From an uncultured bacterium (GTDB lineage Bacteria > Fermentibacterota > Fermentibacteria > Fermentibacterales > JCC-6), in NCBI GenBank assembly GCA_964541235.1, contig CAZIPI010000014.1, positions 666 to 64,665 on the forward strand: 64,000 nt of DNA. The letters run 5' to 3'. The notes beneath the pieces were generated by a model, which saw nothing but the letters and a program-made list of their open reading frames with translations, did not search any database and was not told the DNA's origin. The stretch's first letter is position 1; each line of letters starts with the position of its first letter. A program made the translations under genes and the position numbers. Positions 201 through 50,487 of the stretch are shown here, one piece after another.

Positions 201-821
201 ATGAGAAGTCTTGTGCTTGCGGGTCTGCTGGGATGTGCCGTGCTTGGCGCCGACATAGAGATCGGTACGAGCCAGTTCCCGGATGCGGTTCCCGTCTGCG
301 GGCCTTGAGTGCAGAACCTGCGCTACCAGGTGGTAGTGCTCGGAAGTGAGATCGGCAGCGCCATGACCATAGATGCCATCTCCTTTGTTGCGGCTCCGGA
401 AACAGGGGATTTCTCTTCATTCGACGAGTACAGGGTTTACATGGGTCCCACGACCCTGAACAGCCTGGGCACCGTCTTCGACGACAACTACAGCGGACCC
501 CGGCTCAATGTCTTCGACCATTCCAACGTGACGCACATGAATCAGGGCGGAATGGTGACCATCCCGCTGGACACTCCCTACTTCCACGCCGGGACCGGCA
601 ACCTGCTGATCGAGATAGATTACCAGATAGGCACGCCCATACCGGGCAATCAGAGCGTGTACGTCATGTACTGCTCGGTCCCGGATGACAGGATGCTGAG
701 GGCCAATGCTTCCGGCGCACAGAGCGGGCAGGCTTTCCCATTCCTTGCCCACATGTACCTGAACGGAACACTGTCATTCCAGGCGAGAACCTTCGGCGCC
801 ATCAAAGCGTCTTTCGACTAG
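201..821 (+). CDS. Exported (lipobox LLGC) protein of unknown family with in-frame TGA at 306-308. Candidate selenoprotein (CGP-U motif), paralog 1
   Basis: ATG at 201 follows a purine-rich stretch (ggggggaaga). The N-terminus MRSLVLAGLLGCAVLG looks like a signal peptide or lipobox. The same frame continues through TGA (306-308) into the ORF-track ORF 309-821. The region upstream of the TGA is conserved with paralog 2 in the same frame. Confidence 0.6.
320..339 (+). promoter_or_regulatory. Candidate bacterial SECIS hairpin (gcgctacc-AGGU-ggtagtgc)
   Basis: An 8-bp stem (one G-U pair) with a 4-nt AGGU loop begins 11 nt after TGA 306-308. The spacing and GGU-containing loop match the E. coli fdhF minimal SECIS model. 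Confidence 0.5.
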
Positions 822-830
822 CGGGAGGTC

Positions 831-1466
831 ATGATCAGGGCAGCGCTCACCAGGAGTGTCACCAACCTGAAGTGGGCGCTGCCCTTTCTTTTCTGCAGCT
901 CCGCCGCGGCGGTCAGCATCGAGACAGGTGTTTCAGAGTTCCCGATGAACATTCCATTCTGCGGAGGTTGACACAGTCAGATGCGCTGCCAGGTGGTGGT
1001 GCCGGGAAGCGAAATGGGGGGCAGCGGAGTTTTTTCCGTGTTCATCGAGTCCATCTCCTTCAGGGCCGCCGCCCCTGAGACGGTTGCCTTCGACCGCTTC
1101 TCGGTATCGCTGGGCACAGCGGCGAACGGGTTCCTTGAGGAGAGTTTCCAGGGTAACTTTGCGGGAGAGAGAGTTAGCGTGTTTGAGGCAGAGGGGTGTT
1201 CGTTCACCCCTTCCGGGGGTTGGGTGTCCATCCCGCTGGAAAGGGAATACCTGTTCAACTGCTCGGATAACCTTCTCATAGAGGTGATCTACAGCGGAGC
1301 GGATGGCGGCATGCTCTACTGCGGTTTCGGGGAGACCGATGAAGTGCGGACTGTATGCAACGGAGACCACCAAAGCCCCCGGGGCTACACGTACCGGTTC
1401 GCACCCCATATTGTCATCTCCGGAACACTTGGAGTGAACACATTGTTCGGTGAGTGCATTCTGTGA
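831..1466 (+). CDS. Exported protein, paralog 2, with in-frame TGA at 969-971. Candidate selenoprotein (CGG-U motif)
   Basis: GGGAGG RBS at 823-828 precedes ATG 831. The N-terminus has a hydrophobic signal-like segment (WALPFLFCSSAAA). The frame continues through TGA 969-971 into ORF-track ORF 981-1466. It aligns with paralog 1 on both sides of the TGA (IE[IT]G[TV]S[QE]FP...CG[PG]-TGA-...[YC]QVVV[LP]GSE[IM]G). Confidence 0.6.
983..1002 (+). promoter_or_regulatory. Candidate bacterial SECIS hairpin (gcgctgcc-AGGU-ggtggtgc)
   Basis: An 8-bp stem (G-C plus G-U wobble pairs) with the same AGGU loop again starts exactly 11 nt after the TGA (969-971). Confidence 0.5.
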
Positions 1467-4668: not shown

Positions 4669-6573
4669 ATGAGGGAGACCTGGGGAAGCAGACGGGCCTT
4701 CATTCTGGCCGCTATCGGAAGCGCCATAGGGCTCGGGAACATCTGGAGATTTCCGTACGTGGCGTACGCCAACGGGGGAGGCGCCTTCCTGGTGGCCTAC
4801 TTCGCATGCCTCTTCATCGCGGGCATTCCCGTTATGATGCTTGAGTTCGGCCTTGGGCACAGGTACAGGCAGGCGGCTCCGGGGGCTTTCCGAAGCATCA
4901 GGCCCTCGCTGGAGTGGTTCGGATGGATGGCCGCCCTTCTTTCCTTCGTGATCGTGGTGTACTACGCCATAATCATGACATGGTGCGTGAACTACACCTA
5001 CGAGGCCGCAACCCAGGGATGGAAGCAGGAACCGGGTCTTTATGCCGACCCATCCGTGGCCATCGCCCCCACCCTCCTGTCGGACATGGAGGTCCTTACC
5101 CCGGTGCCCGGCGAGCTTGCGGGGTCTCCCTTCGTCTCACCGGTGAGCGGCACTCCCGGTGTCGTGCGATCCGAGCCCACATCAATCGTGATGCACCAGG
5201 GATGCGCCTACGGCTTCCCAACCCGTGCGCAGGCAGAAGCCTTCGCCCGGCAGCCCTGCGTTGACGACCACTGCGTCCTGACCTCCGGAGAGGGCACGGG
5301 AACATCCGTACTCCCCCGGGTGCCGGCCGCGCTTCTGGGCCGACCCTACGTATCCCCTGTTGACGGTTCGTCCGGGGTGGTGATGAACATCTCCACCATC
5401 CTCGTTGCGTACGGGGGGCGTTTGTACGGTTTCGACAGCGTTGACGAGGCAAGCACTTTCATGGGGTCTCCCGGGGACTTCTTCTTCAACCGGTTCCTGG
5501 GCATCACCTCTTCTCCATGGGACATGGGAAGCTTCCGCTGGCCCCTTCTGATCGGCTTCATCATCTCGTGGGTCTGGATAATCGCAAGCATCTGGAAGGG
5601 CACGAAAACGGTGGGCAGGGTTGTTTACTACACCGTGATAATCCCCTGGGTGCTGCTTCTTGTATTCATCATCAGGGGGGTCACCCTGCCGGGGGCAGGC
5701 GCGGGGCTTGCCTACTACCTTACTCCGGAGTGGGGCCGGCTCCTCAGCGGCGACATCTGGCTTGCTGCGCTGACCCAGGTCTTCTTCAGTCTTAGCGTGG
5801 GCTTCGGGGTGATGATCGCCTACGGCAGCTTCCTGCCAAAAAAGGCAAACCTGGCCGGAAGCGCCTTCATCATCGGAATTGCCGACGCCCTGACCGCCTT
5901 CTGCGGAGGGCTGGCCGTTTTCAGCGCCCTGGGTTTCCAGGCGTCCAGGCTGGGGGTGCCCGTGAGCGAAGTGGTGAAATCTGGGCCGGGCCTGGCCTTC
6001 GTGGCGTACCCCCACATCATATCCAGCCTGCCGGGGGCGCCTGTTTTCGGCGTGCTCTTCTTCCTGATGCTTCTTACCCTGGCTGTGGATTCGGCGTTCA
6101 GCCTCGTTGAGGGCGTCACCGCATCCATCAAGGACAAATGGGGGCTCTCACACAGGCGGGTGAACCTGATGGTGGGCGGCGCCGCCTTCCTTCTGGGCCT
6201 TCCCATGCTGTCAGGGGCCGGGCTTCACATCCTCGACATAGTTGACCACTTCATGAACAACATCTCCCTGGCGCTGGTGGTCCTGGGCCAGATCCTCATC
6301 GTCGGCTGGTTCCTGCCTGCGGAGAAGATGAGAACCTACATCAACGCCAACTCCGGGATCCGAACAGGCCTCTGGTGGAACACCAGCGTCCGCTGGATCA
6401 TACCCTTGGGCATGCTGTGGATGCTGGCGTCGGAGATCAGGGCCAGAACCGCGGGCGCATACGGCAGCTTCGAACTGCGGAGCCAGGAGTTCCTTCTGGG
6501 GTGGCTTGTTGTGATGCTCCTGCCGGTGGTGGGAGACCTGCTGGCATCGGGCAAAGGGAGCTGGAAGGACTAG
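4669..6573 (+). CDS. Neurotransmitter:sodium symporter (NSS/SNF) family transporter with a ~170-aa insertion after TM3
   Basis: Hallmark N-terminus WGSRRAFILAAIGSAIGLGNIWRFPY. Multi-TM throughout. An internal duplicated module lies at aa 145-196 and 217-268. Confidence 0.9.
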   Translation: MRETWGSRRAFILAAIGSAIGLGNIWRFPYVAYANGGGAFLVAYFACLFIAGIPVMMLEFGLGHRYRQAAPGAFRSIRPSLEWFGWMAALLSFVIVVYYAIIMTWCVNYTYEAATQGWKQEPGLYADPSVAIAPTLLSDMEVLTPVPGELAGSPFVSPVSGTPGVVRSEPTSIVMHQGCAYGFPTRAQAEAFARQPCVDDHCVLTSGEGTGTSVLPRVPAALLGRPYVSPVDGSSGVVMNISTILVAYGGRLYGFDSVDEASTFMGSPGDFFFNRFLGITSSPWDMGSFRWPLLIGFIISWVWIIASIWKGTKTVGRVVYYTVIIPWVLLLVFIIRGVTLPGAGAGLAYYLTPEWGRLLSGDIWLAALTQVFFSLSVGFGVMIAYGSFLPKKANLAGSAFIIGIADALTAFCGGLAVFSALGFQASRLGVPVSEVVKSGPGLAFVAYPHIISSLPGAPVFGVLFFLMLLTLAVDSAFSLVEGVTASIKDKWGLSHRRVNLMVGGAAFLLGLPMLSGAGLHILDIVDHFMNNISLALVVLGQILIVGWFLPAEKMRTYINANSGIRTGLWWNTSVRWIIPLGMLWMLASEIRARTAGAYGSFELRSQEFLLGWLVVMLLPVVGDLLASGKGSWKD

Positions 6574-7676
6574 TACCCCCCGAACGCAGGGCATGTGGAG
6601 CAATCCGAGGCGAAGCATTCCAGGTCGGGACGGATGTAGAAACTGAAGCCGGAATCGGGATCGCACCTGTACCCGAACCCGCTCATGTACTGGTAAACTA
6701 TGCCCGCCCTTTCCTGATCGTAGGGCTCATACCCCACGGCGAACAGCCTGAACCTGCGGGCTTCCGCTTGTTCAACGGCATGTTCCTGCCAGGGGGAAAG
6801 CACCGCCTCCGATCTGTGATCGAACCACCAGGGACCTATCACTCCGGCCAGTTCCGGTATCCTTTCCAGCGCTTCAAGCCAGTCCGAAGTGTCGGCGCTC
6901 ACCACATAGAGCGGCGGCATTGCCGCCCCGGCAAGGTCGCGAGCCATGTCCGTTCCCCTGTCGCCCGGCATCCCGGGGAAAGTGAGCAGGTAGATGGTGT
7001 CCTGGTCCATGGCGCTCCATACGCCTGGCTGGCCGGGGGATTCCACCAGCCTGGGGTCGGAGGGGGCTGCGTAGAATGCCGCCAGTCCCCGGATGCCAAT
7101 GACCATGAAGTACACCGCCACAAACACAGCAAGTACCCGTGCAACGCCGGTGAACCACCTCTTTGCGGTGAAGAGCCCGGCAATGGAGAGGGGAAGCATG
7201 TAAACGGTGGTGCCGAAGAAGAACCCAGCGAAGAGAAGCGCCCCGTTCAGCGCCCCTCCCGCATCGAACGCGCTTGTCAGGGCGATGAGGAAAGCGGGAC
7301 ACAGCGAGAAGCCGGTGAATATCCCCAGCAGGAACGGGCTTCCCGTGAACTTCATCCACTTGGATACCTGACAGCCGCCGCATTTCCTGTTCACCCTCAG
7401 GGTGCTCACCAGCAGGAACACGCTGAAGAGGATGTAACCCGCATAGGAAAGGGGTATCCTTACACGGCTGGGTATCCCGCCTCCGAGGAAGCCGATGAGC
7501 GCCCCGAAGCAGACGTAGGCGGCGAACCTTCCCAGGTTCAGGGTGAGCAGGACAAGAAGCGACTGCTTCCCGGTCCTCTTCTCGCTGAACAGGTACGCCG
7601 CATAGACAGGCCCGCATGACGCCAGGCAGGAAACCCCTGTGGCAAGCCCAAGGCTCAGCCCCTCAACAAGGCCCAC
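6570..7676 (-). CDS. DsbD_2/TauE-like integral membrane protein (C-x3-CGP motif) fused to a ~170-aa C-terminal soluble domain ending in CxxxxCxxCP
   Basis: N-terminus GLATGVSCLASCGPV followed by about 6 hydrophobic helices and a CGGC motif. The C-terminus is ...DLECFASDCSTCPAFGGY*. It is the last gene of the minus-strand operon. Confidence 0.55.
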   Translation of the reverse strand: MGLVEGLSLGLATGVSCLASCGPVYAAYLFSEKRTGKQSLLVLLTLNLGRFAAYVCFGALIGFLGGGIPSRVRIPLSYAGYILFSVFLLVSTLRVNRKCGGCQVSKWMKFTGSPFLLGIFTGFSLCPAFLIALTSAFDAGGALNGALLFAGFFFGTTVYMLPLSIAGLFTAKRWFTGVARVLAVFVAVYFMVIGIRGLAAFYAAPSDPRLVESPGQPGVWSAMDQDTIYLLTFPGMPGDRGTDMARDLAGAAMPPLYVVSADTSDWLEALERIPELAGVIGPWWFDHRSEAVLSPWQEHAVEQAEARRFRLFAVGYEPYDQERAGIVYQYMSGFGYRCDPDSGFSFYIRPDLECFASDCSTCPAFGGY

Positions 7677-7700
7677 TGTCTCCCCTTTCCCTGATGCCGG

Positions 7701-8906
7701 CTAAAGATGAGCCGCGGGATGGAAGGCAAGCCCTCCCTGGATGGAGTTCCAGGTCTCGGTGTACTCCAGCTCGGATGCCTGACGGCGAAGAACGATCCAC
7801 CCGGTGAACCCGTTCTTCATCCTGTACTCCAGGCCTCCCCCGTAGCTTTCGCGCCTTCTTGTTCCGCCGGTTCCCGGGATGCTGCTGGGGCCCTCCCAGA
7901 TCCTGCCGCTCACAAGGACCGAGAGCCCCCGGTAAACGCCGACCCTGGTCTCGAGCTCACCGAAGCGGGTGCTTATGAAACTCTCGGTGCCCTGCCCGTA
8001 AAGGCTCACGCTGGAGGGATGGTCGCCCCATCCCGCGAAAGCGAGCCTGAGCCGGCCGCCGGCCTGGAATGCCGCCAGACGGGTCTGGTCCTGGTCGAAA
8101 TCGAGCGTCTGGCAAACCGTGAAGTTGAAGGTCAGGTTGCGGGCAAGGGTCTGCACCGCCCTTAGTCTGGCGGTGGCCCTGTCCGGAAGGGAAGACCCGT
8201 TGTGGTCGTCTCCGCTCATGACCGAAAAGGCAAGGTCGGCCATCACCTGGGTACGTGTGGGAAGCCTGCGCGGCGCCAGGGAAGCGGCAAGGTCGACCCG
8301 GCCGTAGGTCTCGTCGAAGCCTGTTCCTTCGATGCTGGTGTTGTGGCTCACTCCGCTGACACCGATGTCTATTCCCAGAGGAGTGTACCAGACCGCTCCG
8401 CCCCCTGCCCTGGTCTCGGCCCAGGAAAGGTCCTGTTGGTCCTGGTCTGAAACGCTCCTGTTCCAGAGGCGGCCGAAGGCATTGAGCCTCACGGTGCCCG
8501 GAACTCCCCACTGAACATGGAGCCCGGGTCTCAGGGTGTTGTCTCGGACGGCGACGCCTTCCGAGCGGGGCAGCACCACGGCAGCGCTGTCAATGTCCGC
8601 TGTGAAACGGAAGTCGGGCCGCACAGTGAACCCGCCCTGACTGTAGTTCAGGGATACGGTGGTCTCGGACCGGTGGGTGGAGAACCTTGGAAGCGCGGCG
8701 TCATCACCGGAGGCCTTCCTGTAGGTCTGTTCCAGCTGGAACCGCCACGGCCCCTGAAAGAGCCTTACCCCGGCGGAGGCGTCAAGATAGGCCCCGCCGC
8801 CGTAGTTCACGCTGTCGTCGTTCACGGCTATCCTGGCGTACTCCTCGATGCCGAGGCCCATGCAGCAGGCGAACGCCCAGAACAGGAGAAGCATCGCTGT
8901 CTTCAT
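7701..8906 (-). CDS. Predicted outer-membrane beta-barrel protein (unknown family)
   Basis: Signal peptide MKTAMLLLFWAFACC (ATG 8906 overlaps the upstream stop). Composition is rich in alternating hydrophobic/polar residues and in Gly, Tyr, Arg and Asp, with no long hydrophobic helices after the signal peptide. Confidence 0.5.
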   Translation of the reverse strand: MKTAMLLLFWAFACCMGLGIEEYARIAVNDDSVNYGGGAYLDASAGVRLFQGPWRFQLEQTYRKASGDDAALPRFSTHRSETTVSLNYSQGGFTVRPDFRFTADIDSAAVVLPRSEGVAVRDNTLRPGLHVQWGVPGTVRLNAFGRLWNRSVSDQDQQDLSWAETRAGGGAVWYTPLGIDIGVSGVSHNTSIEGTGFDETYGRVDLAASLAPRRLPTRTQVMADLAFSVMSGDDHNGSSLPDRATARLRAVQTLARNLTFNFTVCQTLDFDQDQTRLAAFQAGGRLRLAFAGWGDHPSSVSLYGQGTESFISTRFGELETRVGVYRGLSVLVSGRIWEGPSSIPGTGGTRRRESYGGGLEYRMKNGFTGWIVLRRQASELEYTETWNSIQGGLAFHPAAHL

Positions 8907-9148
8907 CAGTACACCGCTCCCTTCGGGCATATCTCCACGCAGCGGTAGCAGAGGCGGCAGAGGCTTGGGTTGATCACGGCGTCGCCGTCAATCACCTCGA
9001 TGGCGTTGTAGGGGCAGACCTTCTCGCACTCGCCGCAGCCGATGCAGAGGTCGTTGTCCACCACCAGACCGGTGTTCTCGGTGGGGGGCGCGCAGGCGAA
9101 GAGAAGCATTGCGGCCGCCAGCAGAACCGTCTCAGTGAATCGCGTCAT
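8906..9148 (-). CDS. Small lipobox-bearing 2x[4Fe-4S] ferredoxin-domain protein
   Basis: MTRFTETVLLAAAMLLFAC (lipobox-like), then CIGCGECEKVCP and CRLCYRCVEICP. Confidence 0.7.
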   Translation of the reverse strand: MTRFTETVLLAAAMLLFACAPPTENTGLVVDNDLCIGCGECEKVCPYNAIEVIDGDAVINPSLCRLCYRCVEICPKGAVY

Positions 9149-9362
9149 ATGTGCATACCCCCTGGCAGAGCCCGCAGCCGATGCACTTCTCGGGGTCGAT
9201 CCTGGACTTGCCGTTCTCGATCTCGATGGCGTTCACCGGGCACACCCTTGAGCAGTCTCCGCACCCCGAGCAGTTGTCGGGCTCGACCCAGTACCTCACG
9301 GAGCCAAGGGCCAGGGCCGCCGCAAGGCACATCAGAAGGAACATCCCCCCCCGGATGCGCAT
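9132..9362 (-). CDS. Small signal-peptide-bearing 2x[4Fe-4S] ferredoxin-domain protein
   Basis: MRIRGGMFLLMCLAAALALG, then CSGCGDCSRVCP and CIGCGLCQGVC. Confidence 0.7.
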   Translation of the reverse strand: MRIRGGMFLLMCLAAALALGSVRYWVEPDNCSGCGDCSRVCPVNAIEIENGKSRIDPEKCIGCGLCQGVCTYDAIH

Positions 9363-9781
9363 CAGTACACCTCGAATTCCCCGGTTATGTGTGTTTCCTC
9401 ATCCCCGTTCACACCGTAGATGGCCACATTGCCCGATCCCACCGTCACTATTGCGTCCATGGGGCAAGATGCAACGCACGCTCCGCAGAGAATGCACTTT
9501 TCCGGATCTATCCATGCCTTGTTGTCCTCGGTCATGCTTATGGCATCCACGGGGCATGAGCTTATGCAGATCCTGCAGCCGATGCACGCGCCGGGGTCAA
9601 CGATGTAGTCCTCGTTCAGCTCCACCGAGCAGTGCTCCAAGGAGAGTTCTGCAAGCACCCGTCCGAATGCGATCACCCTCAAACCCTCGAAGTCACCCTC
9701 CACCGGCTGCCATGAAATGGTGAATAGCCCCGCGGCGGCCACGGCGGCAAGTGCGGGAACGATCAGCAGGAGTTTCTTCAT
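9362..9781 (-). CDS. Signal-peptide-bearing 2x[4Fe-4S] ferredoxin-domain protein
   Basis: MKKLLLIVPALAAVAAAG, then CIGCRICISSCP and CILCGACVASCP. The stop overlaps the next start. Confidence 0.7.
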   Translation of the reverse strand: MKKLLLIVPALAAVAAAGLFTISWQPVEGDFEGLRVIAFGRVLAELSLEHCSVELNEDYIVDPGACIGCRICISSCPVDAISMTEDNKAWIDPEKCILCGACVASCPMDAIVTVGSGNVAIYGVNGDEETHITGEFEVY

Positions 9782-9805
9782 TGTCCATCCTTTCGGCTCA
9801 TGGCA

Positions 9806-10777
9806 CTAGCTGCCGGGAGGGGGAGGAGGAACGTCAGGAAGAACCCCCGAGGGCAGCACCAGCCTTCTCACGGCATTGTTATGGGGATAATACTCATCCG
9901 GATTGATAACGCTGTTGTAGTTCCAGCACTCCAGGAAGCACTGGCCGCAGTTCACGCACAGGTCGGGATTGATGTAGACCTGGAAAGACTTCCCGTAAAC
10001 ATTCTCAAGGTCCTGCCAGATGGCGTCGTAGGGGCAGAGAGGGCCGGTGTAGACACCCCCGCTGGTAAAATCGTTGAGGAGCGAGCAGCCCGATACGCAT
10101 GTACCGGTGGAATCAGGCGCCGAGGGGGGACAGCGGAGACAGCCGCCGAACTGGGGCACCTGCTTGATGAAGTGTACCATGTACATGGCCCTGGATGAGA
10201 CCTGTATGTCGTCGGACGCCTGGTTCTCGCCGAAGAACGCCCTCACCCCCACATAGTAGTCCCGGCCCAGCCGGCCCCCGTCTATGGCCTTCACGGGGCA
10301 GGCGTCAATGCACAGGCCGCAGCTTCCGCAGAGGTCCTGGTCGATCACCGCCACCCCGTTCTGTATGGTTATGGCCCCCACCGGGCAGGCCCTTTCACAA
10401 AGGCCGCAGCCGATGCAGGCCTCGGGGATGACCTGGGGTTGAAGGAACACCAGGGCCGACTCGGCGGGCGCGGGTATCTGGCCGGCGACGATGGCGCTGT
10501 TCCAGTTCTCGAGGGTTATGGGAGTGGTGGAGAGCCTTGCCTGATACCATACGGCGCCCGGAACCGGCGAGAACCGCACCGTGAACGCCTTCAGCTCCCC
10601 CCCGTCAACCCAGGGGAGCAGCGCCGCCAGCTCCGGTGACATTGCGGTGTAGCCCGAGTCAACAAGAAGCGCGCCGGACTGGAGCACGGTGGGAGAGGTA
10701 GGCCTGGGGGATTCGGTGAGGCAGGCGGCCAGTACCGCCAGCGCCGCGGCCAGGGCGACAAACGTTCCTTTGAGCAT
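9806..10777 (-). CDS. Lipoprotein with 2x[4Fe-4S] ferredoxin domain plus additional Cys-cluster motifs
   Basis: GGAGGG RBS and ATG 10777 (the ORF extends to TTG 10798). MLKGTFVALAAALAVLAAC is a lipobox. Motifs: CIGCGLCERACP, CGSCGLCIDACP, CLRCPP...C..GC, CPYDAI, CVNCGQCFLEC. Confidence 0.7.
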   Translation of the reverse strand: MLKGTFVALAAALAVLAACLTESPRPTSPTVLQSGALLVDSGYTAMSPELAALLPWVDGGELKAFTVRFSPVPGAVWYQARLSTTPITLENWNSAIVAGQIPAPAESALVFLQPQVIPEACIGCGLCERACPVGAITIQNGVAVIDQDLCGSCGLCIDACPVKAIDGGRLGRDYYVGVRAFFGENQASDDIQVSSRAMYMVHFIKQVPQFGGCLRCPPSAPDSTGTCVSGCSLLNDFTSGGVYTGPLCPYDAIWQDLENVYGKSFQVYINPDLCVNCGQCFLECWNYNSVINPDEYYPHNNAVRRLVLPSGVLPDVPPPPPGS

Positions 10778-10832
10778 GGCAAGCCCTCCATTCCGCAAAC
10801 CTGTATAGTACGATCCTTTTAATACTCATTCA

Positions 10833-36965: not shown

Positions 36966-37600
36966 CTCTTCCTTTTCACAGCTTTGAACCCCGATCCGGG
37001 ATGGCGAAACTGCACCATGAACCCCGGGCGGTCAAGAGGCGGTGAGGGCAGGGCAACCACAAGCTTTTCGCATGGAATGGAATACGGTTCCGCGACCCTG
37101 AGCGTGAGAGTGCAGCCGTCGGGCGCCGTCCCCGCAACGCGGGACAGGAGCTGTTCAGGGTCCTCCACTGCCCTCGCGGTAAAAGCGGTGTCCTTCGGGA
37201 AGGGGCCGGCCTCCTCGATGCCGCAGTGCATCGCCGCCGCGTTCCCCAGCCCCAGGGAGTCCAGCGCCCAGAGAAGGAACAGATACCTCTTCCTCCTTCT
37301 CTCCACCATGGTGACGTTCATTCCAAAGATCGCCAGGACCATTCCCGGGAACCCCGCTCCGCTCCCGATGTCCACCACCGGCCCTGCTTCCTTCAGGAGG
37401 GGCATGTACGCGGCGGACTCAAGGACGTGCCTTCCCCAGAGGCGTTCCATCTCCCGCGGACCCAGCAGGTTGCCGAACCTGCCCCCCATGCCGTGCTCAA
37501 GAAGGACCGCGAACTCGGAAAGCATCTGCAGGGCGCTCCCCGTGGGCTCCACCCCCAGCGCTCGGAGCGAAGAGGAAGCGTCATCCGGAATGTGTTTCAC
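36962..37600 (-). CDS. rsmG: 16S rRNA m7G527 methyltransferase RsmG (GidB)
   Basis: DIGSGAGFPG motif and the conserved position between mnmG and parA. Confidence 0.85.
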   Translation of the reverse strand: MKHIPDDASSSLRALGVEPTGSALQMLSEFAVLLEHGMGGRFGNLLGPREMERLWGRHVLESAAYMPLLKEAGPVVDIGSGAGFPGMVLAIFGMNVTMVERRRKRYLFLLWALDSLGLGNAAAMHCGIEEAGPFPKDTAFTARAVEDPEQLLSRVAGTAPDGCTLTLRVAEPYSIPCEKLVVALPSPPLDRPGFMVQFRHPGSGFKAVKRKR

Positions 37601-39377
37601 GTGGAACCTTTCCCCTGAGGGCCTGCAGTGTCATCACTTCCACATCCGACGCCCTCACCCCGGGAAGGCGTGAAGCCTCCCTTATGGTTAGCGGTTCGGC
37701 ATTGCATATGGCCTGCCTGGCTTCGATGGACATACCGGACAGCAGTTGCGCCGGGGGGACAGGCAGGTCGAGGTGTTCTCCTGCGGCGTGGACCCGCCTC
37801 TGATGCCTGCTGATGTATCCTCCGTACCTGATGTCGTTGAATACGCACCCGACTCCCTCGGGGTCCACCTCCTTCAACTCCGGGCAGAGCCCTGTGATCA
37901 CTCTGGTGGTGGTCTCGGGCCTTCTGCAGAGGGATTCCAGGCCGCTGCCGCCTATGAGAAGCCGGGCCCTCTCCCTGTGGGCTTCCAGAGCCTTCATCCT
38001 GCCCAGTCGCTCCCCTCCCAGGACACCAAGTCCGGTGCCGAACTCAATAAGCCTTGCGTGGGCGTTGTCCTGTCTCAGGTGAAGCCTGTTCTCGGCCCTG
38101 CTGGAGAAGAGCCTGTAGGGCTCCTCGATACCCTTGCTGACAAGGTCGTTGACCATGACGCCCAGGTAGCTCTGTTGCCTGTCCGGAACCGCAGGGGGCA
38201 TGTCCAGTGCTGTCCTTGCGGCGTTCGCGCCGGCGAGAAGGCCCAGCGCCGCTGCTTCCTCATACCCGGACGTCCCGAGGAGCTGGCCGGCCGCGAACAG
38301 GTTCACGGTCCCGCGAAGCCTGAGCGTTTCATCGAACGTGCCCCAGGCCAGCCTTCCGTACTCCACGGCATACCCGAACAGGGCGATCTCGGCCCTGTGG
38401 AAGCCGTCCATGCTTCTCAGCATCCGGTACTGGACGTCCTGGGGCATGCTGGTGGAAAGACCGTTCAGGTATGAAAGCCTTGAATGCTCCGCCACCGGCT
38501 CAACGTGTACAGGGTGATCGGAGCGCTCCGGGAACTTGAACACCTTGTCCTCGAAGCTTGGGCAGTACCTCGGGCCCCTTCCCCCTATGCGCCGGGAGAG
38601 CAGGGGCGATCTTCCGGCGTTCTCCCTTACGGCCTCGGCGGTCCTGACGTTTGTCCTTGCAAGGTGGCACAGCCTCTCCCCGCAGGTGCGTTCGCCGGTC
38701 TCCACGCTGAACCTGAAAGGGAAACGGTGAGCCTCCTGAACCTCCAGAGCGTCCAGATCAATGGAAGAGGTGACGATCCTGGGAGACGTCCCTGTCTTGA
38801 AACGTTCCACGTGGAACATTCCCGAGAGGAACCTGTGCAGCTCAACAGAGGGAAGGCCCCCGTCCCTTCCGCCGGGCCAGCGTTCATCCCCCCTGTAAAG
38901 GGTTCCGCCAAGGTACGTGCCGGTGGCGAGTACGAATGAGTCGCCCGGTACCGAGCGGCCACCGTCCAGCAGCGCTTCGGTGAACCTTTCGGGGCCCCCG
39001 CCGAGAGCCAGCGCCATGCCCTTCACCACCGTTACCCCGGCGGCGTCCAGCGCCCGCCTCACGAAGCGCGGGTACAGCCTTGAGTCGGACTGAACCCTCG
39101 GCCCCCACACGGCGGGCCCCCTGCTCATGTTCAGCATGCGGAACTGCAGTGATGTGCAGTCGGCCGCCAGCCCCATTATGCCTCCGAGGGCGTCGATCTC
39201 CCTTACGAGACATCCCTTGGCCACGCCTCCGATGGCGGGGTTGCAGGGCATCAGGGCTATGGCGCCCGGTTCCGCCGTAACAAGCACGGCGCGGGCCCCG
39301 ACCCTCGCCGCGGCCATTGCCGCCTCGGCGCCGGCGTGGCCGCCGCCCACCACCACCACCGTTCTACTTGCCGACAC
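37581..39377 (-). CDS. mnmG: tRNA uridine-5-carboxymethylaminomethyl synthesis enzyme MnmG (GidA)
   Basis: VVVVGGGHAGAEAA FAD motif. Full-length family match. GTG start at 39377. Confidence 0.95.
   Translation of the reverse strand: MSASRTVVVVGGGHAGAEAAMAAARVGARAVLVTAEPGAIALMPCNPAIGGVAKGCLVREIDALGGIMGLAADCTSLQFRMLNMSRGPAVWGPRVQSDSRLYPRFVRRALDAAGVTVVKGMALALGGGPERFTEALLDGGRSVPGDSFVLATGTYLGGTLYRGDERWPGGRDGGLPSVELHRFLSGMFHVERFKTGTSPRIVTSSIDLDALEVQEAHRFPFRFSVETGERTCGERLCHLARTNVRTAEAVRENAGRSPLLSRRIGGRGPRYCPSFEDKVFKFPERSDHPVHVEPVAEHSRLSYLNGLSTSMPQDVQYRMLRSMDGFHRAEIALFGYAVEYGRLAWGTFDETLRLRGTVNLFAAGQLLGTSGYEEAAALGLLAGANAARTALDMPPAVPDRQQSYLGVMVNDLVSKGIEEPYRLFSSRAENRLHLRQDNAHARLIEFGTGLGVLGGERLGRMKALEAHRERARLLIGGSGLESLCRRPETTTRVITGLCPELKEVDPEGVGCVFNDIRYGGYISRHQRRVHAAGEHLDLPVPPAQLLSGMSIEARQAICNAEPLTIREASRLPGVRASDVEVMTLQALRGKVPRETHSG
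37593..37608. other. parS-like site TGTTTCACGTGGAACC
   Basis: 14 of 16 match to the parS consensus TGTTNCACGTGAAACA. It lies at the mnmG/rsmG junction, about 1.4 kb upstream of the parAB genes. Confidence 0.55.
38803..38818. other. parS-like site CGTTCCACGTGGAACA
   Basis: Contains the perfect 14-bp palindrome GTTCCACGTGGAAC. 14 of 16 match to the parS consensus. It lies inside mnmG. Confidence 0.55.
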
Positions 39378-40569
39378 AGAGAACGCTCAGCGCCCGCTCC
39401 ACCGCAGTGAGGTCGTGGCGGATACCCGTGATCTCCTCTGCAATGGTCTCGGCCTCTCGTATGAGCCCGGCTGCGATCCCGGGCTCCTGGTCCGCCGTTG
39501 CCCGGGCCTCCAGAAGCAATGACAGGACCCGGGATGCCATGTGCTCAGCGGGAGACGAAGACATGTCAACGAGGCATTTCACAAGTTCCCCGACCCCCTC
39601 GCCTGTCACTGATGAAACCCGTTGCCCGTTGAGGCTGTGGGTGTCGCTTTTGGACAGGACCGTAAGAACCCTTGCCCCCCTTGAGAGAAGCACTTCAGGC
39701 GCCCCCTCTCCGCCGGGGCTGAGCCAAACCACCATGTCCTCGGGTCGGATCCCGCTCAGCGAAGCCGCAAGCGCCGCCCCGTCCAGGGCTCCGCCCCCGA
39801 ATCCCGGCGTGTCTATCAGAAGGAACCTCCGCCCCTGAAGGGAGACCTCCCTGCGGGCGCCGTCACGGGTGGTCCCGGGTTCCGGATGGACAAGGGCCAC
39901 GAATGAGCCGCACAGCGTGTTCATCAGGGTTGACTTCCCGGCGTTCACCCTTCCGGTCAGATAGACCTTCGCTGCCCTGGAAAGCCCTTGTGCGCTCTCG
40001 AGAAGTTCCCTGGCGGACCCGACGGCCGCCTCAAGGGCATCCACTGGGTCATGCCGGCACCGGCTGCTCTCCTCGGGGAACTCGATGGACCCCTCGATGT
40101 CCTCCAGGGCTTTCGAGATCATCTTTTGAAGGGCGGGCACGGCAACGTCAAGCGGGTCCGCCTTGCGGCCCGTCTCCACCGCCGCGGCCAGGGCAAGTAT
40201 CTGCTGGCCGGACACCCTTCCGTTGCGCCAGGCCCTTCCTGTGAACTCCCCGGGCAGCGCGCCTCTGGCTCCCGCCCCGATAACTGCGTCCAGAAGGGCC
40301 GAGACGAACTCGGGTATGCCGTGGCAGATGAGTTCCACCATCTCTTCCCCGGTGTAGCTGCCGCCCTCGGGCCAGGCCAGCGCCACCACATCCCCGGCGC
40401 GCGGGATCACGGCAACAGCCCTCCGCATGCCCCTGAGCCTGCCCCCCTCAAGCCCTGCAAGACCCTCCACCAGGGCGCAGCACCCGGGGCCGGAGAGCCT
40501 CACCACCGCCAGGGCAGACAGCCCCGGCGGAGTGGCAACGGCGGCTATGATATCGTTTTCAGGGGTCAC
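39364..40569 (-). CDS. mnmE: tRNA modification GTPase MnmE (TrmE)
   Basis: GTG 40569 overlaps the yidC stop (GTGA). IIAAVATPPG, G-domain GRVNAGKSTLMN, and C-terminal CVGK. Confidence 0.85.
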   Translation of the reverse strand: MTPENDIIAAVATPPGLSALAVVRLSGPGCCALVEGLAGLEGGRLRGMRRAVAVIPRAGDVVALAWPEGGSYTGEEMVELICHGIPEFVSALLDAVIGAGARGALPGEFTGRAWRNGRVSGQQILALAAAVETGRKADPLDVAVPALQKMISKALEDIEGSIEFPEESSRCRHDPVDALEAAVGSARELLESAQGLSRAAKVYLTGRVNAGKSTLMNTLCGSFVALVHPEPGTTRDGARREVSLQGRRFLLIDTPGFGGGALDGAALAASLSGIRPEDMVVWLSPGGEGAPEVLLSRGARVLTVLSKSDTHSLNGQRVSSVTGEGVGELVKCLVDMSSSPAEHMASRVLSLLLEARATADQEPGIAAGLIREAETIAEEITGIRHDLTAVERALSVLCVGK

Positions 40570-42128
40570 CTGGGCTCTTCGGCCTCCATCTTCTTCCTGA
40601 TAAGCTCCTGATGGCCCATGGTGAGAAGGTTGAACACCATCCAGTAAAGGTTCATGCCGGCCGCGAACTTCATGAAGATGTAGCTCATGAACACCGGCAT
40701 CAGGTACATCATGCCCTTCTGCTGCTGCATCGAGGCCGAACTCATCTTCTGCTGGATGATCATGAACGCGGCGCTCACAAGCGCCATGAGCCCTATCCCG
40801 TGAAGACCGAGGATGGGGGCCTGGAACGGGATGAGTATCTCCGGCCTTGACAGGTCGGTCATCCACAGCACGAAGGGAGCGCCCCTGAGTTCCACTGCGT
40901 TCCCCAGAACCCTGTACATGGCGAAGAACACCGGCATCTGCAGAAGCATGGGAAGACACCCTCCGAGAGGGTTGGCGCCGGACTCCCTGTAGAGCTTCTG
41001 CATTGCCTGCTGCTGTTTCTGCGGGTCGGCCGCGTATTTCTGCTGTATCTCCTTTATGGCCGGGGAAAGCTTCTGCATCTTCTGCATGGCCACGAAGCTC
41101 TTCTTGGTGAGGGGCATCATAAGGAGCTTGAGTGTGAAGGCCAGAACGATTATCCTGAGGCCCCAGTTGCCAATGAACGAGAGAACGCGGTCGAGATACA
41201 GGAAGATCAGCTGAGCAAGCTGTCTGACCACGGGAAAGCCGAAGTCCACCATTTTGCCGGTGTCGCTTCCCAGGCCGGTCAGGACCGTGTAGCTCACGGG
41301 TCCGGCGTAAACAGTGACGTTCTCCGCTTCCAGTGAAACTTCGGGGGAGCTTCCGGCACCAGGTGCGACAAATCCGCTGACCCTCTCCCGCGACTGCGGA
41401 AGAAGCACGATGCAGAAGTACCTTGATGAGGCGGCGACCCACCTGCTGTTGCCGGTTCCCTCAAGCGCATCGATGGCGGTTGCTTTCCTGCGTGTCATCT
41501 TGTTGGTGTACCAGCAGGCGGAATAATACTGCCTGAGGTCGGCCCCGGCTTCCGTGACCGGTATCGCCCCGGACTGCACGGTCATCCTGCCGGAAAGCCC
41601 TTCCTCGGATACGTCGAAGGCGTAGGATCCGCTTCTGAACCTGAAGGTGCGGGTGGCGCTCCCGGCGGTCATCACCACTTCGGCATCTCCGGCGACCACC
41701 ACGGTGTCCGGGCTGTTGCAGTGGAAGGCCACCGGTTCGCCCCTGGAGTTCATCGCCATGAGCCATGGTTCCCTGGCAAGGTTCACCGCTTCCCCGGAGG
41801 CATCCCCTGTAAGATCGGGGTAGCTGTTCAGCGACCAGCGGGTGACGCCCCCGCCGAAGGTTGTCAGACGGGCGTCCACGAGGACCGATTCGCCGTCCAT
41901 TATCAACACGGTTATTGCTCGTGGGGATGTCTGCTCTTCATGGAAGTCCACCGGTGGCTCAGGCTCGGGCTGGTCAGGGGCAAGGAGTTCGGGGGCCGTT
42001 TCCCGCACCTCTCCCGTCTGCGCTGGAGGGGTGGTCGTCCTGGGGCCGGCCAGGAACCAGCTCAAGGCCAGGACCGCCATCATGAGCGCGGCTGCTAGAA
42101 GCATTCGTGACTGGTCACTGATCGCCAT
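40566..42128 (-). CDS. yidC: Membrane protein insertase YidC
   Basis: N-terminal TM, a large periplasmic domain, and the conserved C-terminal 5-TM core (GGCLPMLLQMPVFFA...). Confidence 0.9.
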   Translation of the reverse strand: MAISDQSRMLLAAALMMAVLALSWFLAGPRTTTPPAQTGEVRETAPELLAPDQPEPEPPVDFHEEQTSPRAITVLIMDGESVLVDARLTTFGGGVTRWSLNSYPDLTGDASGEAVNLAREPWLMAMNSRGEPVAFHCNSPDTVVVAGDAEVVMTAGSATRTFRFRSGSYAFDVSEEGLSGRMTVQSGAIPVTEAGADLRQYYSACWYTNKMTRRKATAIDALEGTGNSRWVAASSRYFCIVLLPQSRERVSGFVAPGAGSSPEVSLEAENVTVYAGPVSYTVLTGLGSDTGKMVDFGFPVVRQLAQLIFLYLDRVLSFIGNWGLRIIVLAFTLKLLMMPLTKKSFVAMQKMQKLSPAIKEIQQKYAADPQKQQQAMQKLYRESGANPLGGCLPMLLQMPVFFAMYRVLGNAVELRGAPFVLWMTDLSRPEILIPFQAPILGLHGIGLMALVSAAFMIIQQKMSSASMQQQKGMMYLMPVFMSYIFMKFAAGMNLYWMVFNLLTMGHQELIRKKMEAEEPR

Positions 42129-42816: not shown

Positions 42817-43095
42817 GACCCGTTCCTTCTTGACTAAACCGGCGGCTGGTTGCCCCGGGAAACAAAAAATGCCTATTCCAATGGGAAGCGGAATTTTACT
42901 AATTCACGCGGGGCGTGTCAAGCTCTTTTCCGCCCTTGCCAACGGAAAAGAAATCAACATGTTCTGGTCTGTATCGAGCGGCCCGGATTTTCATTCAATT
43001 GCTGTGCAAGTGTTTACTACGGCCGGAGGTGTGTTGAAAACTATGTTGATCATTGCTGACCCTGTTGTGTGCATTCGTCTTACGGCTCTTCTCAG

Positions 43096-44412
43096 ATGTT
43101 CCTGAGCAACACATCCGAGTCCGCCTGGTCCCAGTGTCTTTCGATGGCGAAGGAGCGGCTTGGGCTCGATACGTTCAACTCGTGGCTGGCCGGCTCCAGG
43201 TTCGTGAGCTTCGAGTACGAGACATTCACCGTTGAGTTCAAGGACGATTTCAGCGCCGGTTTCGTCTCAGCCCACTTCTCCGAGAAGCTCCGGCCCATCC
43301 TGGCTGAGCTTCTGGAATGCCCCGACCTCCATTTCCGCGCCATCTCCGCGTCCCGCAGCGTCCCTGCAAGGCGCGAGAACCTTCTCCCAACCATGCTGAG
43401 GTCAACCTACACCTTCGAACGGTTCATCGTTGACGACAACAACAGGCTCGCCTACGCAACAGCGGTCTCAGCCGCGAAGAACATGGGCTCCGATCTTGCC
43501 AACCCCCTATTCATCTACGGCGGGGTCGGCCTGGGCAAGACCCACCTCATCCAGGCTGTGGCCCACTACGTAAGCAATCACAGGCCCGACCTTCTGGTCC
43601 GCTACATATCAAGCGAGGCATTCCTGAACCAGCTCGTTGCAGGCTTCAACAACAAGAGCACCATGGAGGCGTTCGAGAAGCGTTTTCGTGACGTTCACTA
43701 CCTTCTCATGGACGACGTTCAGTTCTTCGGCGGAAAGCAGGTCCTCGAGCAGAAGCTCTTCCACATCTTCAACGACCTTTACCTTCAGGGAAGGCAGATC
43801 GTTCTTACGTCGGACAGGCCTCCCCATGAGATAGAGCCGCTGGAGGAGCGTCTTGTCTCAAGGTTCCAGTCCGGCATCGTTGCCGATATCAAGCCGCCGG
43901 GCCTTGAGACAAGGGTCGCCATTCTCAGCCAGATCGCCAGGGAAAAAAGGATCTCCATAGAAGACGAGATCATGTACCTGATCGCGGACTCGGTTAAGTC
44001 CAACGTACGCCAGCTCGAGGGTGTGGTCAACCTCATTGCCGTGCGCTCCCAGGTTCTGAACATCTCCATAACCAAGGACCTTGTTCGCAACATAATCGCC
44101 GAGTCTTTGGGAGCGGGAACGCGCCATCTTAACCCGGGCAGCATAACAAGCGCCGTGGCGGAAGCCTTTTCCATCAACCCTGCGCTGATAAGGGGAAAGC
44201 AGCGCAAGCGCGAGGTACTTATCCCCCGGCATGTTTCCATGCTGCTCATAAGGGACCTGACCGACACACCCCTTACGGAGATCGGCCGCTTCTTCTCGGG
44301 CCGAGACCATTCCACGGTTCTCAATGCCATTGCACGGATCAAGGAGATGATGGCCGAGAACCCTTCCCTGAAGAGGAAGGTTCAGGACGTGAAGGAAAGC
44401 CTCACCAGCTGA
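43096..44412 (+). CDS. dnaA: Chromosomal replication initiator DnaA
   Basis: Walker A GGVGLGKTHL, the box VII/sensor region, and the C-terminal DNA-binding domain (DHSTVLNA). ATG 43096 is preferred over GTG 43069. Confidence 0.95.
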   Translation: MFLSNTSESAWSQCLSMAKERLGLDTFNSWLAGSRFVSFEYETFTVEFKDDFSAGFVSAHFSEKLRPILAELLECPDLHFRAISASRSVPARRENLLPTMLRSTYTFERFIVDDNNRLAYATAVSAAKNMGSDLANPLFIYGGVGLGKTHLIQAVAHYVSNHRPDLLVRYISSEAFLNQLVAGFNNKSTMEAFEKRFRDVHYLLMDDVQFFGGKQVLEQKLFHIFNDLYLQGRQIVLTSDRPPHEIEPLEERLVSRFQSGIVADIKPPGLETRVAILSQIAREKRISIEDEIMYLIADSVKSNVRQLEGVVNLIAVRSQVLNISITKDLVRNIIAESLGAGTRHLNPGSITSAVAEAFSINPALIRGKQRKREVLIPRHVSMLLIRDLTDTPLTEIGRFFSGRDHSTVLNAIARIKEMMAENPSLKRKVQDVKESLTS

Positions 44413-44656
44413 CGATGTTCAAAAACCTCCTGCTTTCCTGTGGAAAAAGTGTTGATGCTCCTTACGGAAATCACTTTCGCGAATGATTGTGGGAAAAACC
44501 GTTTCTCCAATCCCGTTGCCCACGGGTTTTCAACACCTCGAACTACCTGCCCGCCACCCCCGGAGCCTTACTTTTCCACAAATCCACATGTATAATTGTG
44601 ATGACTATTCTTTAGATGTTTGAACTCTACCTCTCTGTAACTGTGTGGAAGGAGAG
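44413..44656. other. Candidate oriC (dnaA-dnaN spacer with DnaA-box-like repeats and an AT-rich segment)
   Basis: TGTGGAAAA at 44440-44448, TGTGGGAAA at 44489-44497, TTTTCCACA at 44572-44580, AAATCCACA at 44580-44588, TGTGGAAGG at 44644-44652. An AT-rich stretch tataattgtgatgactattctttagatgtttgaa lies at about 44591-44625. Confidence 0.5.
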
Positions 44657-45775
44657 ATGCGCATGGTGAAGCTTCTGGTATCCTACGGAGACCTTCTCAA
44701 GGGCCTTAGCATTGTGGCCAATGCTCTGCCTCCAAAAACTAGTCTGCCGTCCCTGACCAACATTCTTCTCGAGACCCAGGGCGACCGGTTGAGCCTTGCC
44801 GCCACCGATCTCGACACCTCTGTGATCACATCGGTGCCGGCCACCATCAGCACCCAGGGATCGGTGGCCCTTCCAGGCAAGAAGCTTCTCGAGATCGTAA
44901 AGGAGCTTCCCGGCGGCGACATTCACATCGGCGGCTCCGGAAGCAGGATCACCATTTCCTGCGGCAACAGCAACTTCATCCTTGCGGGGAGCAGCAGGGA
45001 CAGCTTCCCGTCCCTTCCTTCCGCCAGCGAGGTTTCCTTCACCGAACTGCCCATAAAGGCGGTATCGGAAGCGGTGAGGAAAACCGCGTTCGCCGTGGCG
45101 TCCGACGACTACCGGCCCGCACTCAACGGCGCGCTCTGGAAAATGGGGCCCGAGGGGCTTGAGATGGTGGCCACCGACGGGCACCGCCTGGCCCGGATGC
45201 GCCTTTCAGAGCTTGTCTCCCAGAAGCCCATGGAGGCCATCGTGGCGCCCAAGGCATTGAACCTTCTGGGCCGGCTGGGCGAGGACGAGAACATCCTTCT
45301 CGGCTCCCAGGGCACGCAGATCTGCTTCAAATCAGGAGAGACGGCGGTGTTCAGCAGGATCATCGAGGGGCCCTATCCCCCCTACGAGAAGGTGATACCC
45401 GGGGAGAACCCGTTCCTGCTCACCGTGAACCGCGTTGACATCATAGCCAGCCTGAGAAGGATGAGGATCATTGCGAACCCTGCAACCCATCAGGTTCGTT
45501 TCACCCTCGAACAGGGGAGGATGATACTTCAGGCCGAGAACACCGATGCAGGCGAAGCCAGGGAGGAACTCCAGGCCCGTTTCGACTCCGACCCGCTGCA
45601 GATCGCGTTCAACGGAGACTTCCTGATGGAGATACTGAAGAACATGGACAGCGAATCGGTTGTCATGAAGATAAGGGATGGGGCCACCGCAGTTGTCATA
45701 GAAGAGCTGGAACAGGATTCCGGCATGGAGTACCTGGCTCTGCTGATGCCGGTGCGGCTGGCCACCCCGGCGTAG
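44657..45775 (+). CDS. dnaN: DNA polymerase III beta sliding clamp
   Basis: Three-domain length and family pattern (ATDGHRLA, LQAENTDAGEA). GGAGAG RBS before ATG 44657. Confidence 0.9.
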   Translation: MRMVKLLVSYGDLLKGLSIVANALPPKTSLPSLTNILLETQGDRLSLAATDLDTSVITSVPATISTQGSVALPGKKLLEIVKELPGGDIHIGGSGSRITISCGNSNFILAGSSRDSFPSLPSASEVSFTELPIKAVSEAVRKTAFAVASDDYRPALNGALWKMGPEGLEMVATDGHRLARMRLSELVSQKPMEAIVAPKALNLLGRLGEDENILLGSQGTQICFKSGETAVFSRIIEGPYPPYEKVIPGENPFLLTVNRVDIIASLRRMRIIANPATHQVRFTLEQGRMILQAENTDAGEAREELQARFDSDPLQIAFNGDFLMEILKNMDSESVVMKIRDGATAVVIEELEQDSGMEYLALLMPVRLATPA

Positions 45776-45792
45776 CGAAAGGTTCTCCGCTT

Positions 45793-50483
<4,691 letters not shown>

Positions 50484-50487
<4 letters not shown>

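Follow-up and report, generated by a model that had tools for sequence, protein, structure and literature searches.

In-frame TGA codons in tandem genes of a Fermentibacterota bacterium are very probably read as selenocysteine in a family of exported proteins with a predicted jelly-roll fold

Are the in-frame TGA codons that interrupt neighbouring genes of an uncultured member of the Fermentibacterota stops, or are they read as selenocysteine (Sec; U in protein motifs)? The genes lie at the start of a 64,000-nucleotide stretch of contig CAZIPI010000014.1 (the window, by which we mean that whole stretch), and coordinates given below without a locus are positions in it. Loci used for comparison carry L numbers, L001 being the 118-kb contig that holds the window together with upstream DNA. 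A first-pass annotation had described TGA-split tandem paralogs at 201–821 and 831–1466 and proposed them as candidates for a new selenoprotein family; translation reproduced their coordinates and frames. The features concerned, including hairpins that resemble a selenocysteine insertion sequence (SECIS), are as follows.

2–163, + strand: 3' end of paralog 1, whose start lies before window position 1; L001 contains the whole gene
189–200, + strand: Shine-Dalgarno-like purine-rich stretch GGGGGGGGAAGA before ATG 201, read from the sequence
201–821, + strand: full coding sequence of putative selenoprotein paralog 2; 206 codons including Sec; stop TAG 819–821
201–251, + strand: predicted Sec-type (secretory) signal peptide of paralog 2; cleavage ...AVLGA / DIEIG suggested by ortholog alignment
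297–308, + strand: C-G-P-U motif of paralog 2; Cys codon TGC 297–299, putative Sec codon TGA 306–308
320–339, + strand: SECIS-like hairpin of paralog 2, GCGCUACC-AGGU-GGUAGUGC; within codons L-R-Y-Q-V-V-V-L
823–828, + strand: Shine-Dalgarno sequence GGGAGG before ATG 831
831–1466, + strand: full coding sequence of putative selenoprotein paralog 3; 211 codons including Sec; ordinary TGA stop 1464–1466
960–971, + strand: C-G-G-U motif of paralog 3; Cys codon TGC 960–962, putative Sec codon TGA 969–971
983–1002, + strand: SECIS-like hairpin of paralog 3, GCGCUGCC-AGGU-GGUGGUGC; two pairs become G-U wobbles relative to paralog 2

Read through the TGA codons, paralog 2 is continuous as MRSLVLAGLLGCAVLGADIEIGTSQFPDAVPVCGP-TGA(306–308)-VQNLRYQVVVLGSEIG and paralog 3 as ...AAAVSIETGVSEFPMNIPFCGG-TGA(969–971)-HSQMRCQVVVPGSEMG.... 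The two share the block I-E-x-G-x-S-x-F-P-x-x-x-P-x-C-G-x before the TGA and x-x-x-[LM]-R-[YC]-Q-V-V-V-x-G-S-E-[IM]-G after it, and 17 codons separate I-E from the TGA in both. The ATG starts proposed at 201 and 831 are indeed preceded by Shine-Dalgarno-like stretches, and the C-terminus of a third paralog placed at 2–163 proved to belong to a gene that begins upstream in L001, where we found its signal peptide, C-A-T-TGA (TGA at L001 9944) and the same hairpin. The lipobox proposed for the N-terminus did not survive: the Cys of the LLGC sequence in paralog 2 is not conserved in orthologs, and the lipoprotein reading was rejected on that ground. By sequence, the N-termini look like ordinary signal peptidase I signal peptides, cleaved before A/D-[VI]-E-I-G. 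A scan of the window for TGA-interrupted open reading frames (ORFs) coding on both sides yielded no convincing selenoprotein gene besides these two targets. From the comparisons that follow, we conclude that the UGA codons at 306–308 and 969–971 are very probably decoded as selenocysteine and that the three tandem paralogs are genuine selenoprotein genes, a reading to which we give a probability of about 0.9.

A search of 5.8 billion proteins returned 14 relatives of the window protein, all of them fragments of 144–170 aa whose 'starts' vary between M, V and L within a dozen residues after the TGA position; gene callers give such fragments on selenoprotein genes. We fetched the DNA of these 14 relatives and added matches in GTDB genomes and JGI metagenomes. 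In the DNA of the database relatives the missing N-terminus was present in frame, with a signal peptide and C-x-x-TGA, public gene calls having split the genes into a 36-aa ORF and a 144–170-aa ORF. In total, 38 distinct homologous genes could be read in frame through a TGA, never a TAA or TAG. In all 38 the upstream frame is retained, as are the signal peptide and a Cys one to three residues before the TGA (usually three codons), and none starts after the TGA with a signal peptide of its own. The conservation of frame on both sides of the TGA that had been claimed for the two window genes thus extends to every homolog in this set, in which both flanks show purifying selection; residues C33, U36, R41, Q43 and V44 are invariant in alignment A1. 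Rare Cys spacings occur as C-G-U in L036 (CxU, ~866–871) and G-C-U in L040 (CU, ~403–408), and in both the R/H-Y/H-Q block still follows Sec at 4–5 residues. The named genomes with TGA genes all belong to Fermentibacterota (Ca. Fermentibacteria, Fermentibacteraceae, Hyd24-12 UBA6080, Ca. Aegiribacteria MLS_C and GLR63), and the remaining TGA genes come from metagenomes.

Homologs with a cysteine codon (TGT or TGC) in place of the TGA were also found. At least 29 full-length homologs have Cys there. Two are third-paralog genes, L010_11271 and L023_2367, with TGT where the others have TGA (F-C-G-A-C-L-G-S-L-R-Y-Q); the other 27 are full-length proteins of 196–218 aa with P-F-C-G-x-C-A-x-S-M-R-Y-Q, which came from a profile search covering 1.8 billion representatives and from one more protein search. 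Among these 27 the Sec-aligned Cys is invariant and the first Cys at least 90% conserved, and one bears the NCBI name 'hypothetical protein [Candidatus Fermentibacteraceae bacterium]'. The single-domain clusters among the best 150 representatives comprise 21 that are N-terminally short (putative Sec forms) and 6 that are full-length, and every one of the 21 for which DNA was examined has TGA. The CxxU/CxxC single-domain subfamily appears to be confined to Fermentibacterota. A new bacterial selenoprotein has been defined by at least two Cys homologs together with a SECIS-like structure (PMC1088965), and the family has both.

The structure in question is the matching hairpin that had been pointed out 11 nt after each TGA. 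Both window hairpins fold as described, with an 8-bp stem and an AGGU loop. Across 33 distinct Sec genes, codons +5 to +8, which form the 5' arm and loop, show no synonymous variation: Arg, which has six codons, is CGC in 33/33, Tyr is TAC in 27/27, Gln is CAG in 33/33 and Val is GTG in 33/33. Two equally invariant residues outside the hairpin, Pro −5 and Gly +16, use four codons each. In a covariation alignment of 34 of the 38 distinct sequences, the inner 6 bp are paired in every sequence (34/34) and four of the eight pairs have changed on both sides (U-A to C-G, C-G to U-A, G-C to U-A or A-U, and A-U to G-C), the first accompanying a change of R-Y to H-H and the second a change of V-V to V-M. 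None of 500 column shuffles reached the observed covariation score, and slid registers of the 3' arm scored far lower. Divergent members keep the stem with a different sequence, at a spacer of 11 or, rarely, 14 nt, and the apical loop is AGGU or, in one clade, AGUU. Two of the three Cys forms checked are without the hairpin through the use of other synonymous codons (AGG TAT CAG GTG CTC GTT; AGA TAC CAG ACC). Fold, frozen synonymous sites and compensatory pairs agree, and this comparative evidence indicates that the hairpin is under RNA-level selection. On every sequence-based point by which membership in the bacterial selenoproteins is judged, in-frame TGA, Cys homologs and SECIS-like hairpin included, the family qualifies.

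Genes for selenocysteine synthesis and insertion occur in the same lineage. Locus L041 (JGI Ga0366841_1000941) carries a family member with C-G-S-TGA in the order yedF, DUF3343/Se_S_carrier, family member, a protein with a type IX secretion system (T9SS) tail, selD, selA, selB; the assignments exceed their model cut-offs for yedF (TIGR03527, 154 bits against 110), selD (TIGR00476, 329 against 125), selA (TIGR00474, 489 against 268) and selB (TIGR00475, 322 against 242). In L043 (GCA_002754885.1) the genes that enclose the family member are yedF, a first DUF3343 gene, a gene for a TIGR01977/SclA-like desulfurase and another DUF3343 gene. A role in selenium metabolism has been proposed for YedF and DUF3343 (PMC9312934). 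The nearest relatives of the L041 SelB bear the NCBI names Ca. Sabulitectum, Ca. Fermentibacteraceae, Ca. Fermentibacterales and Ca. Aegiribacteria, and an rnfCDGEAB-selA-selB arrangement is conserved on contigs of 110–800 kb. These results imply that the Sec trait spans the phylum and co-occurs with the selenoprotein family at family rank. Among the related loci, the SelA, SelB and SelD sequences of L041 match only L041 itself and L044–L046.

The selenium genes of these loci also differ in their arrangement. In the Fermentibacterota contigs L044–L046 (3299–11887) rnfCDGEAB is followed directly by selA-selB, and in L041 (1–14243) about 8 kb between rnfB and selA hold two genes without assignment, yedF, DUF3343, the selenoprotein gene, the T9SS protein gene and selD, an insertion that looks like a selenium island. 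The L041 selD gene, too, has a TGA within its frame, in the motif A-A-C-A-G-U-A-G-K (~10616–10660, − strand, upstream of selD 9620–10615); its public gene call is short at the N-terminus, and a hairpin lies 15 nt downstream of its TGA.

Several observations weigh against decoding as selenocysteine. The machinery named in the first-pass annotation was recovered in part: selD, selA and selB adjoin a family member on L041 and SelB occurs across the phylum, but we found no selA, selB, selC or selD in the 64-kb window or about 10 kb upstream, and ARAGORN found no tRNA-Sec in the window or 21 related loci. A tblastn search of the window and L001–L021 with E. coli SelA, SelB and SelD likewise gave no match, which is only a weak negative because the query sequences were approximate. 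Compared with dinucleotide shuffles, 40-nt pieces carrying the hairpins are only weakly, and not significantly, more stable (z −2.0, 6/200, for paralog 2; z −0.8, 41/200, for paralog 3), so the significance of the window hairpins comes from the comparison of homologs. No Rfam SECIS or other relevant family was detected at the gathering threshold on the window or at E up to 10 on 150–1500; the hairpin is without the bulged U of E. coli fdhF; and R-Y-Q-V-V is also conserved as protein, so that part of the nucleotide conservation is coding. Nor is loss of the hairpin with loss of Sec absolute, for the Cys form L023_2367 keeps a strong hairpin in a shifted register. This structure (L023 2367–2415, GGUACCAG-GCG-CUGGUACC, −20.6 kcal/mol for a 48-nt piece) might have been left over, or put to another use, after a switch from Sec to Cys. 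Against the functional reading proposed further on, the gene neighbourhood differs by clade, with a gene for a Fer4_5 membrane protein (described below) in one and yedF/sel genes in another.

Because the TGA, its flanks and the hairpin do not themselves identify the inserted residue, the UGA might be read through outside the Sec pathway, by a near-cognate Trp or Cys tRNA, by a suppressor tRNA or through stimulation by the hairpin, to give a protein without selenium; that no tRNA-Sec was seen in the loci scanned would be in keeping with this. We consider such read-through very unlikely. The non-TGA homologs all have Cys at the aligned residue, never Trp, Gly or Arg, and the C-x-x-U/C motif itself argues against it. 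The position of the hairpin and its small G-containing apical loop match the definition of a bacterial SECIS (PMC1088965), and SelA, SelB and SelD are found across the phylum and next to one member. Furthermore, a hairpin-stimulated leaky stop would need no TGA specifically, yet 38 of 38 genes use it.

We judge it slightly less probable again that the TGAs are real stops, each ending a gene for an exported peptide of 35–46 aa that is followed by a separate protein of 160–170 aa starting at GTG 309 or ATG 981. Public gene calls split the genes exactly so, and alternative start codons do lie shortly after the TGA, but the post-TGA 'start' is not conserved (M, V or L, at positions 1 to 12) and a ribosome-binding site is impossible within the conserved coding stretch. 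The frame is always continuous across the TGA, and the 29 Cys homologs are each one uninterrupted protein at this point. In addition, the segment before the Cys/Sec position belongs to the predicted fold (AlphaFold2, AF2; Cys form), with a predicted local distance difference test score (pLDDT) of about 90, and the downstream part alone would be without a signal peptide, though both the fold and the relatives are extracytoplasmic.

Least probable, and in our view negligible, is that the TGAs are assembly or sequencing errors, marks of pseudogenes or sense codons of a variant code: although the window comes from a metagenome assembly and some uncultivated lineages reassign UGA, the identical feature in more than 30 independent assemblies (ENA, JGI, NCBI, Logan) rules out assembly error, both sides of the TGA are under purifying selection, and TGA is an ordinary stop elsewhere in the window. 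It is the commonest stop there, ending 26 of 40 long high-scoring ORFs, which does not fit a code in which UGA is sense (tables 4 and 25); it ends DnaA, GyrB, GyrA and MnmG at the last positions of curated models, and it ends paralog 3 itself. UGA decoding would therefore be site-specific, in agreement with the earlier view that global recoding is unlikely. The genes dnaA, dnaN, gyrB and gyrA lie together at 43069–50487 (+ strand), with mnmG and mnmE-like genes upstream of them on the opposite strand (37581–41442), and the window probably spans the replication origin region.

What kind of protein would carry the selenocysteine? Neither full-length protein (U replaced by C) matched any Pfam or NCBIfam model, even at E = 10. 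AF2 models the full-length Cys form with a beta jelly roll spanning about 165 aa, similar to carbohydrate-binding modules (CBMs) and phage tail spikes, with a pLDDT of 90.6, compared to 66 for a model of the truncated domain. In the model a short N-terminal strand precedes the loop that holds the CxxC/CxxU, and this loop leads into the first long strand (R-Y-Q-V-V-V). A thioredoxin-like alpha/beta fold, in which the motif would stand at the N-terminal end of a helix, was considered and rejected, since the predicted fold is a jelly roll, and this places the family outside the thioredoxin-fold CxxU families. The description of CxxU as the classic redox arrangement therefore holds as an analogy of motif but not of fold. 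The similarity to solved CBMs is that of a jelly-roll beta sandwich, and no curated CBM or Pfam family includes the protein.

The jelly-roll domain is widespread beyond these genes, with 3,832 matches at E ≤ 1e-3 in the profile search and no Pfam model; the three-repeat relatives that we scanned gave no model for it either. The usual arrangement among the top matches is a lipoprotein of about 565 aa in which three tandem copies of the domain accompany an N-terminal Gly-rich lipobox region. Other relatives have up to 15 copies in proteins of 1,400–6,700 aa, and the giant surface relatives carry CBM96, Big_5 or cadherin-like domains. The multi-domain relatives inspected have the P-F-...-R-Y-Q loop without the Cys pair. 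The jelly-roll domain stands as a family of its own, so far uncharacterised.

Directly downstream of the two window genes lies a candidate partner.

1511–2869, + strand: downstream partner gene, NapH/NosR-like Fer4_5 membrane protein; conserved

Loci of the Fermentibacteraceae type and of Aegiribacteria contain one to three Sec genes each, and those with downstream sequence have a Fer4_5 gene directly 3' of them (41–100% identity). The exceptions, in which the Fer4_5 gene is absent directly downstream, are L005, L041, L043 and the Cys-form locus L037. The 1511–2869 protein carries CxxCP-type motifs in its transmembrane segments and, besides a signal peptide, has a Pro/Glu-rich linker and three extracytoplasmic modules of four Cys each. 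The modules (Cys 18/28/35/47, 134/144/151/163 and 184/194/201/213, the linker lying between the first two) follow the consensus CPLxLxPxEAC...SPRCAL..DSN.D.RCDNPG, and no family model covers this N-terminal part. The protein scores 51.8 against a cut-off of 22 for Fer4_5 (PF12801), 57.8 against 1000 for NosR and 40.9 against 213 for napH; it resembles the NapH/MauN/NosR family, in which these scores do not demonstrate membership, and no C-terminal ferredoxin domain was detected in it.

Other neighbours recur as well. On the opposite strand, just before the selenoprotein cluster, lies a tRNA-Asp(GTC) gene (L001 9610–9686, −); it holds the same position in every Fermentibacteraceae-type and Aegiribacteria genome locus scanned (L003, L004, L007, L010, L012, L014 and L016–L021), a deeply conserved synteny. 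About 4 kb downstream of the Sec genes, the Fermentibacteraceae-type loci examined have a conserved opposite-strand cluster (6570–10798, − strand, in the window) encoding a 368-aa DsbD_2 membrane protein, a second protein, of some 400 aa and without a family, and four small or medium-sized 4Fe-4S ferredoxin-type proteins, two of whose genes (80 and 76 aa) overlap by 17 nt. This cluster may belong to the same redox system as the Sec genes.

In the mechanism that we propose, SelB with Sec-tRNA(Sec) would bind the 8-bp AGGU hairpin 11 nt 3' of the UGA, which would act as a minimal bacterial SECIS within the R-Y/C-Q-V-V-V codons. A cleavable Sec-type signal peptide would direct export of the precursor (about 200 aa), giving a mature protein that starts near (A)D-I/V-E-I-G, with C-x-x-U some 15–18 residues from the new N-terminus in the loop leading into the first long jelly-roll strand. 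Outside the cytoplasm, the Cys/Sec pair might form a selenenylsulfide redox centre or a binding site for chalcogens or soft metals. Periplasmic acceptors receive electrons across the membrane from NapH, NosR and CcoG-type proteins, and electrons passing through the Fer4_5 protein and its extracytoplasmic 4-Cys modules could keep the site reduced. The jelly roll would supply binding to a substrate or surface, and candidate substrates would be species of sulfur or selenium, or the disulfides of a polymer to which the protein binds. Judging from neighbourhood and fold, we suggest such an extracytoplasmic redox, chalcogen or soft-metal role, electron-fed by the Fer4_5 protein, tentatively.

In the Sabulitectum-like clade, the association with yedF, DUF3343, selD and SclA hints at a link to selenium or sulfur trafficking; the yedF/selD association may equally be the common clustering of selenoprotein genes with sel genes. 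A bolder proposal, which we regard as doubtful, is that the family represents the first CBM-like jelly-roll selenoprotein, a surface or periplasmic Cys/Sec module for chalcogens (selenium, polysulfide, sulfur) or soft metals, fed by a NapH-like conduit and in one clade wired into a yedF/DUF3343/selD cluster. If this were true, the family would be a phylum-specific extracytoplasmic device for selenium or sulfur acquisition or respiration, not another antioxidant oxidoreductase.

We found no literature linking Fermentibacter*, Hyd24-12 or Aegiribacteria with selenocysteine or selenoproteins, and the 2022 catalogue of prokaryotic selenoproteins (PMC9312934) holds nothing comparable. The family is apparently undescribed, the unnamed 'hypothetical protein' families of the Sargasso, GOS and Olavius studies lying outside this comparison. 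Bacterial selenoprotein families are found regularly and more than 100 are known; this one would add a well-supported member to the bacterial selenoproteome, in genes that every public gene call has split into a 36-aa ORF and a fragment of about 160 aa. Fermentibacterota (Hyd24-12), which are common in anaerobic digesters and sediments, would use selenocysteine in two or three tandem exported proteins. With its natural Sec/Cys and compensatory variants, the near-invariant 20-nt SECIS is a small system in which its recognition by SelB could be studied for an uncultivated phylum, and its pattern could be used to correct annotation. A specific prediction about the source of electrons follows from the conserved NapH-like partner.

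With the bacterial SelB/SECIS selenoproteins, of which E. coli fdhF is the paradigm (PMC1088965), the family shares an in-frame UGA with conserved flanks, Cys homologs, a stem-loop whose small G-containing apical loop starts 20 nt after the UGA, and Sec genes in the lineage. Unlike fdhF, it has a plain 8-bp stem and a 4-nt loop with no bulged U, and its hairpin is near-invariant across the whole phylum and its paralogs. The redox selenoproteins with C-x-x-U (SelW-like/Rdx, AhpD-like, HdrA, GrdA, DUF1858 and PrdC; PMC9312934) likewise have a Cys three residues before Sec and CxxC Cys forms, whereas the fold predicted here is a jelly roll and not thioredoxin-like, AhpD or Rdx, with the motif in an N-terminal loop of an exported protein. 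Selenoproteins of the cell envelope are known, including a TonB-dependent receptor, MtrB/PioB, BtuF-like proteins with CxxU and DsbA/DsbG-like proteins (PMC9312934, PMC12013277). Export and Sec are common to these and the present family, as is CxxU in the BtuF-like case, but sequence family and fold are unrelated, and none has been reported from Fermentibacterota in the literature searched.

The partner gene shares Fer4_5 with NapH/NosR/CcoG-type proteins and weakly matches the NosR and NapH models; it differs in its three N-terminal extracytoplasmic 4-Cys modules, and synteny suggests its partnership with a selenoprotein. In fold, the selenoprotein resembles an acetylxylan esterase CBM (7tog/7tok), Bxb1 gp29 (9d93), the phi812 DUF4815 protein (9euf) and PHR domains (3gbw), a likeness in fold alone at 7–13% sequence identity, and to our knowledge no CBM is a selenoprotein. 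Cys forms dominate in most selenoprotein families, whereas here the putative Sec forms outnumber them among the best 150 matches. Together, the binding-module-like fold, the extracytoplasmic site and the prevalence of Sec forms suggest that Sec may serve a purpose other than classical thiol-disulfide catalysis in this family.

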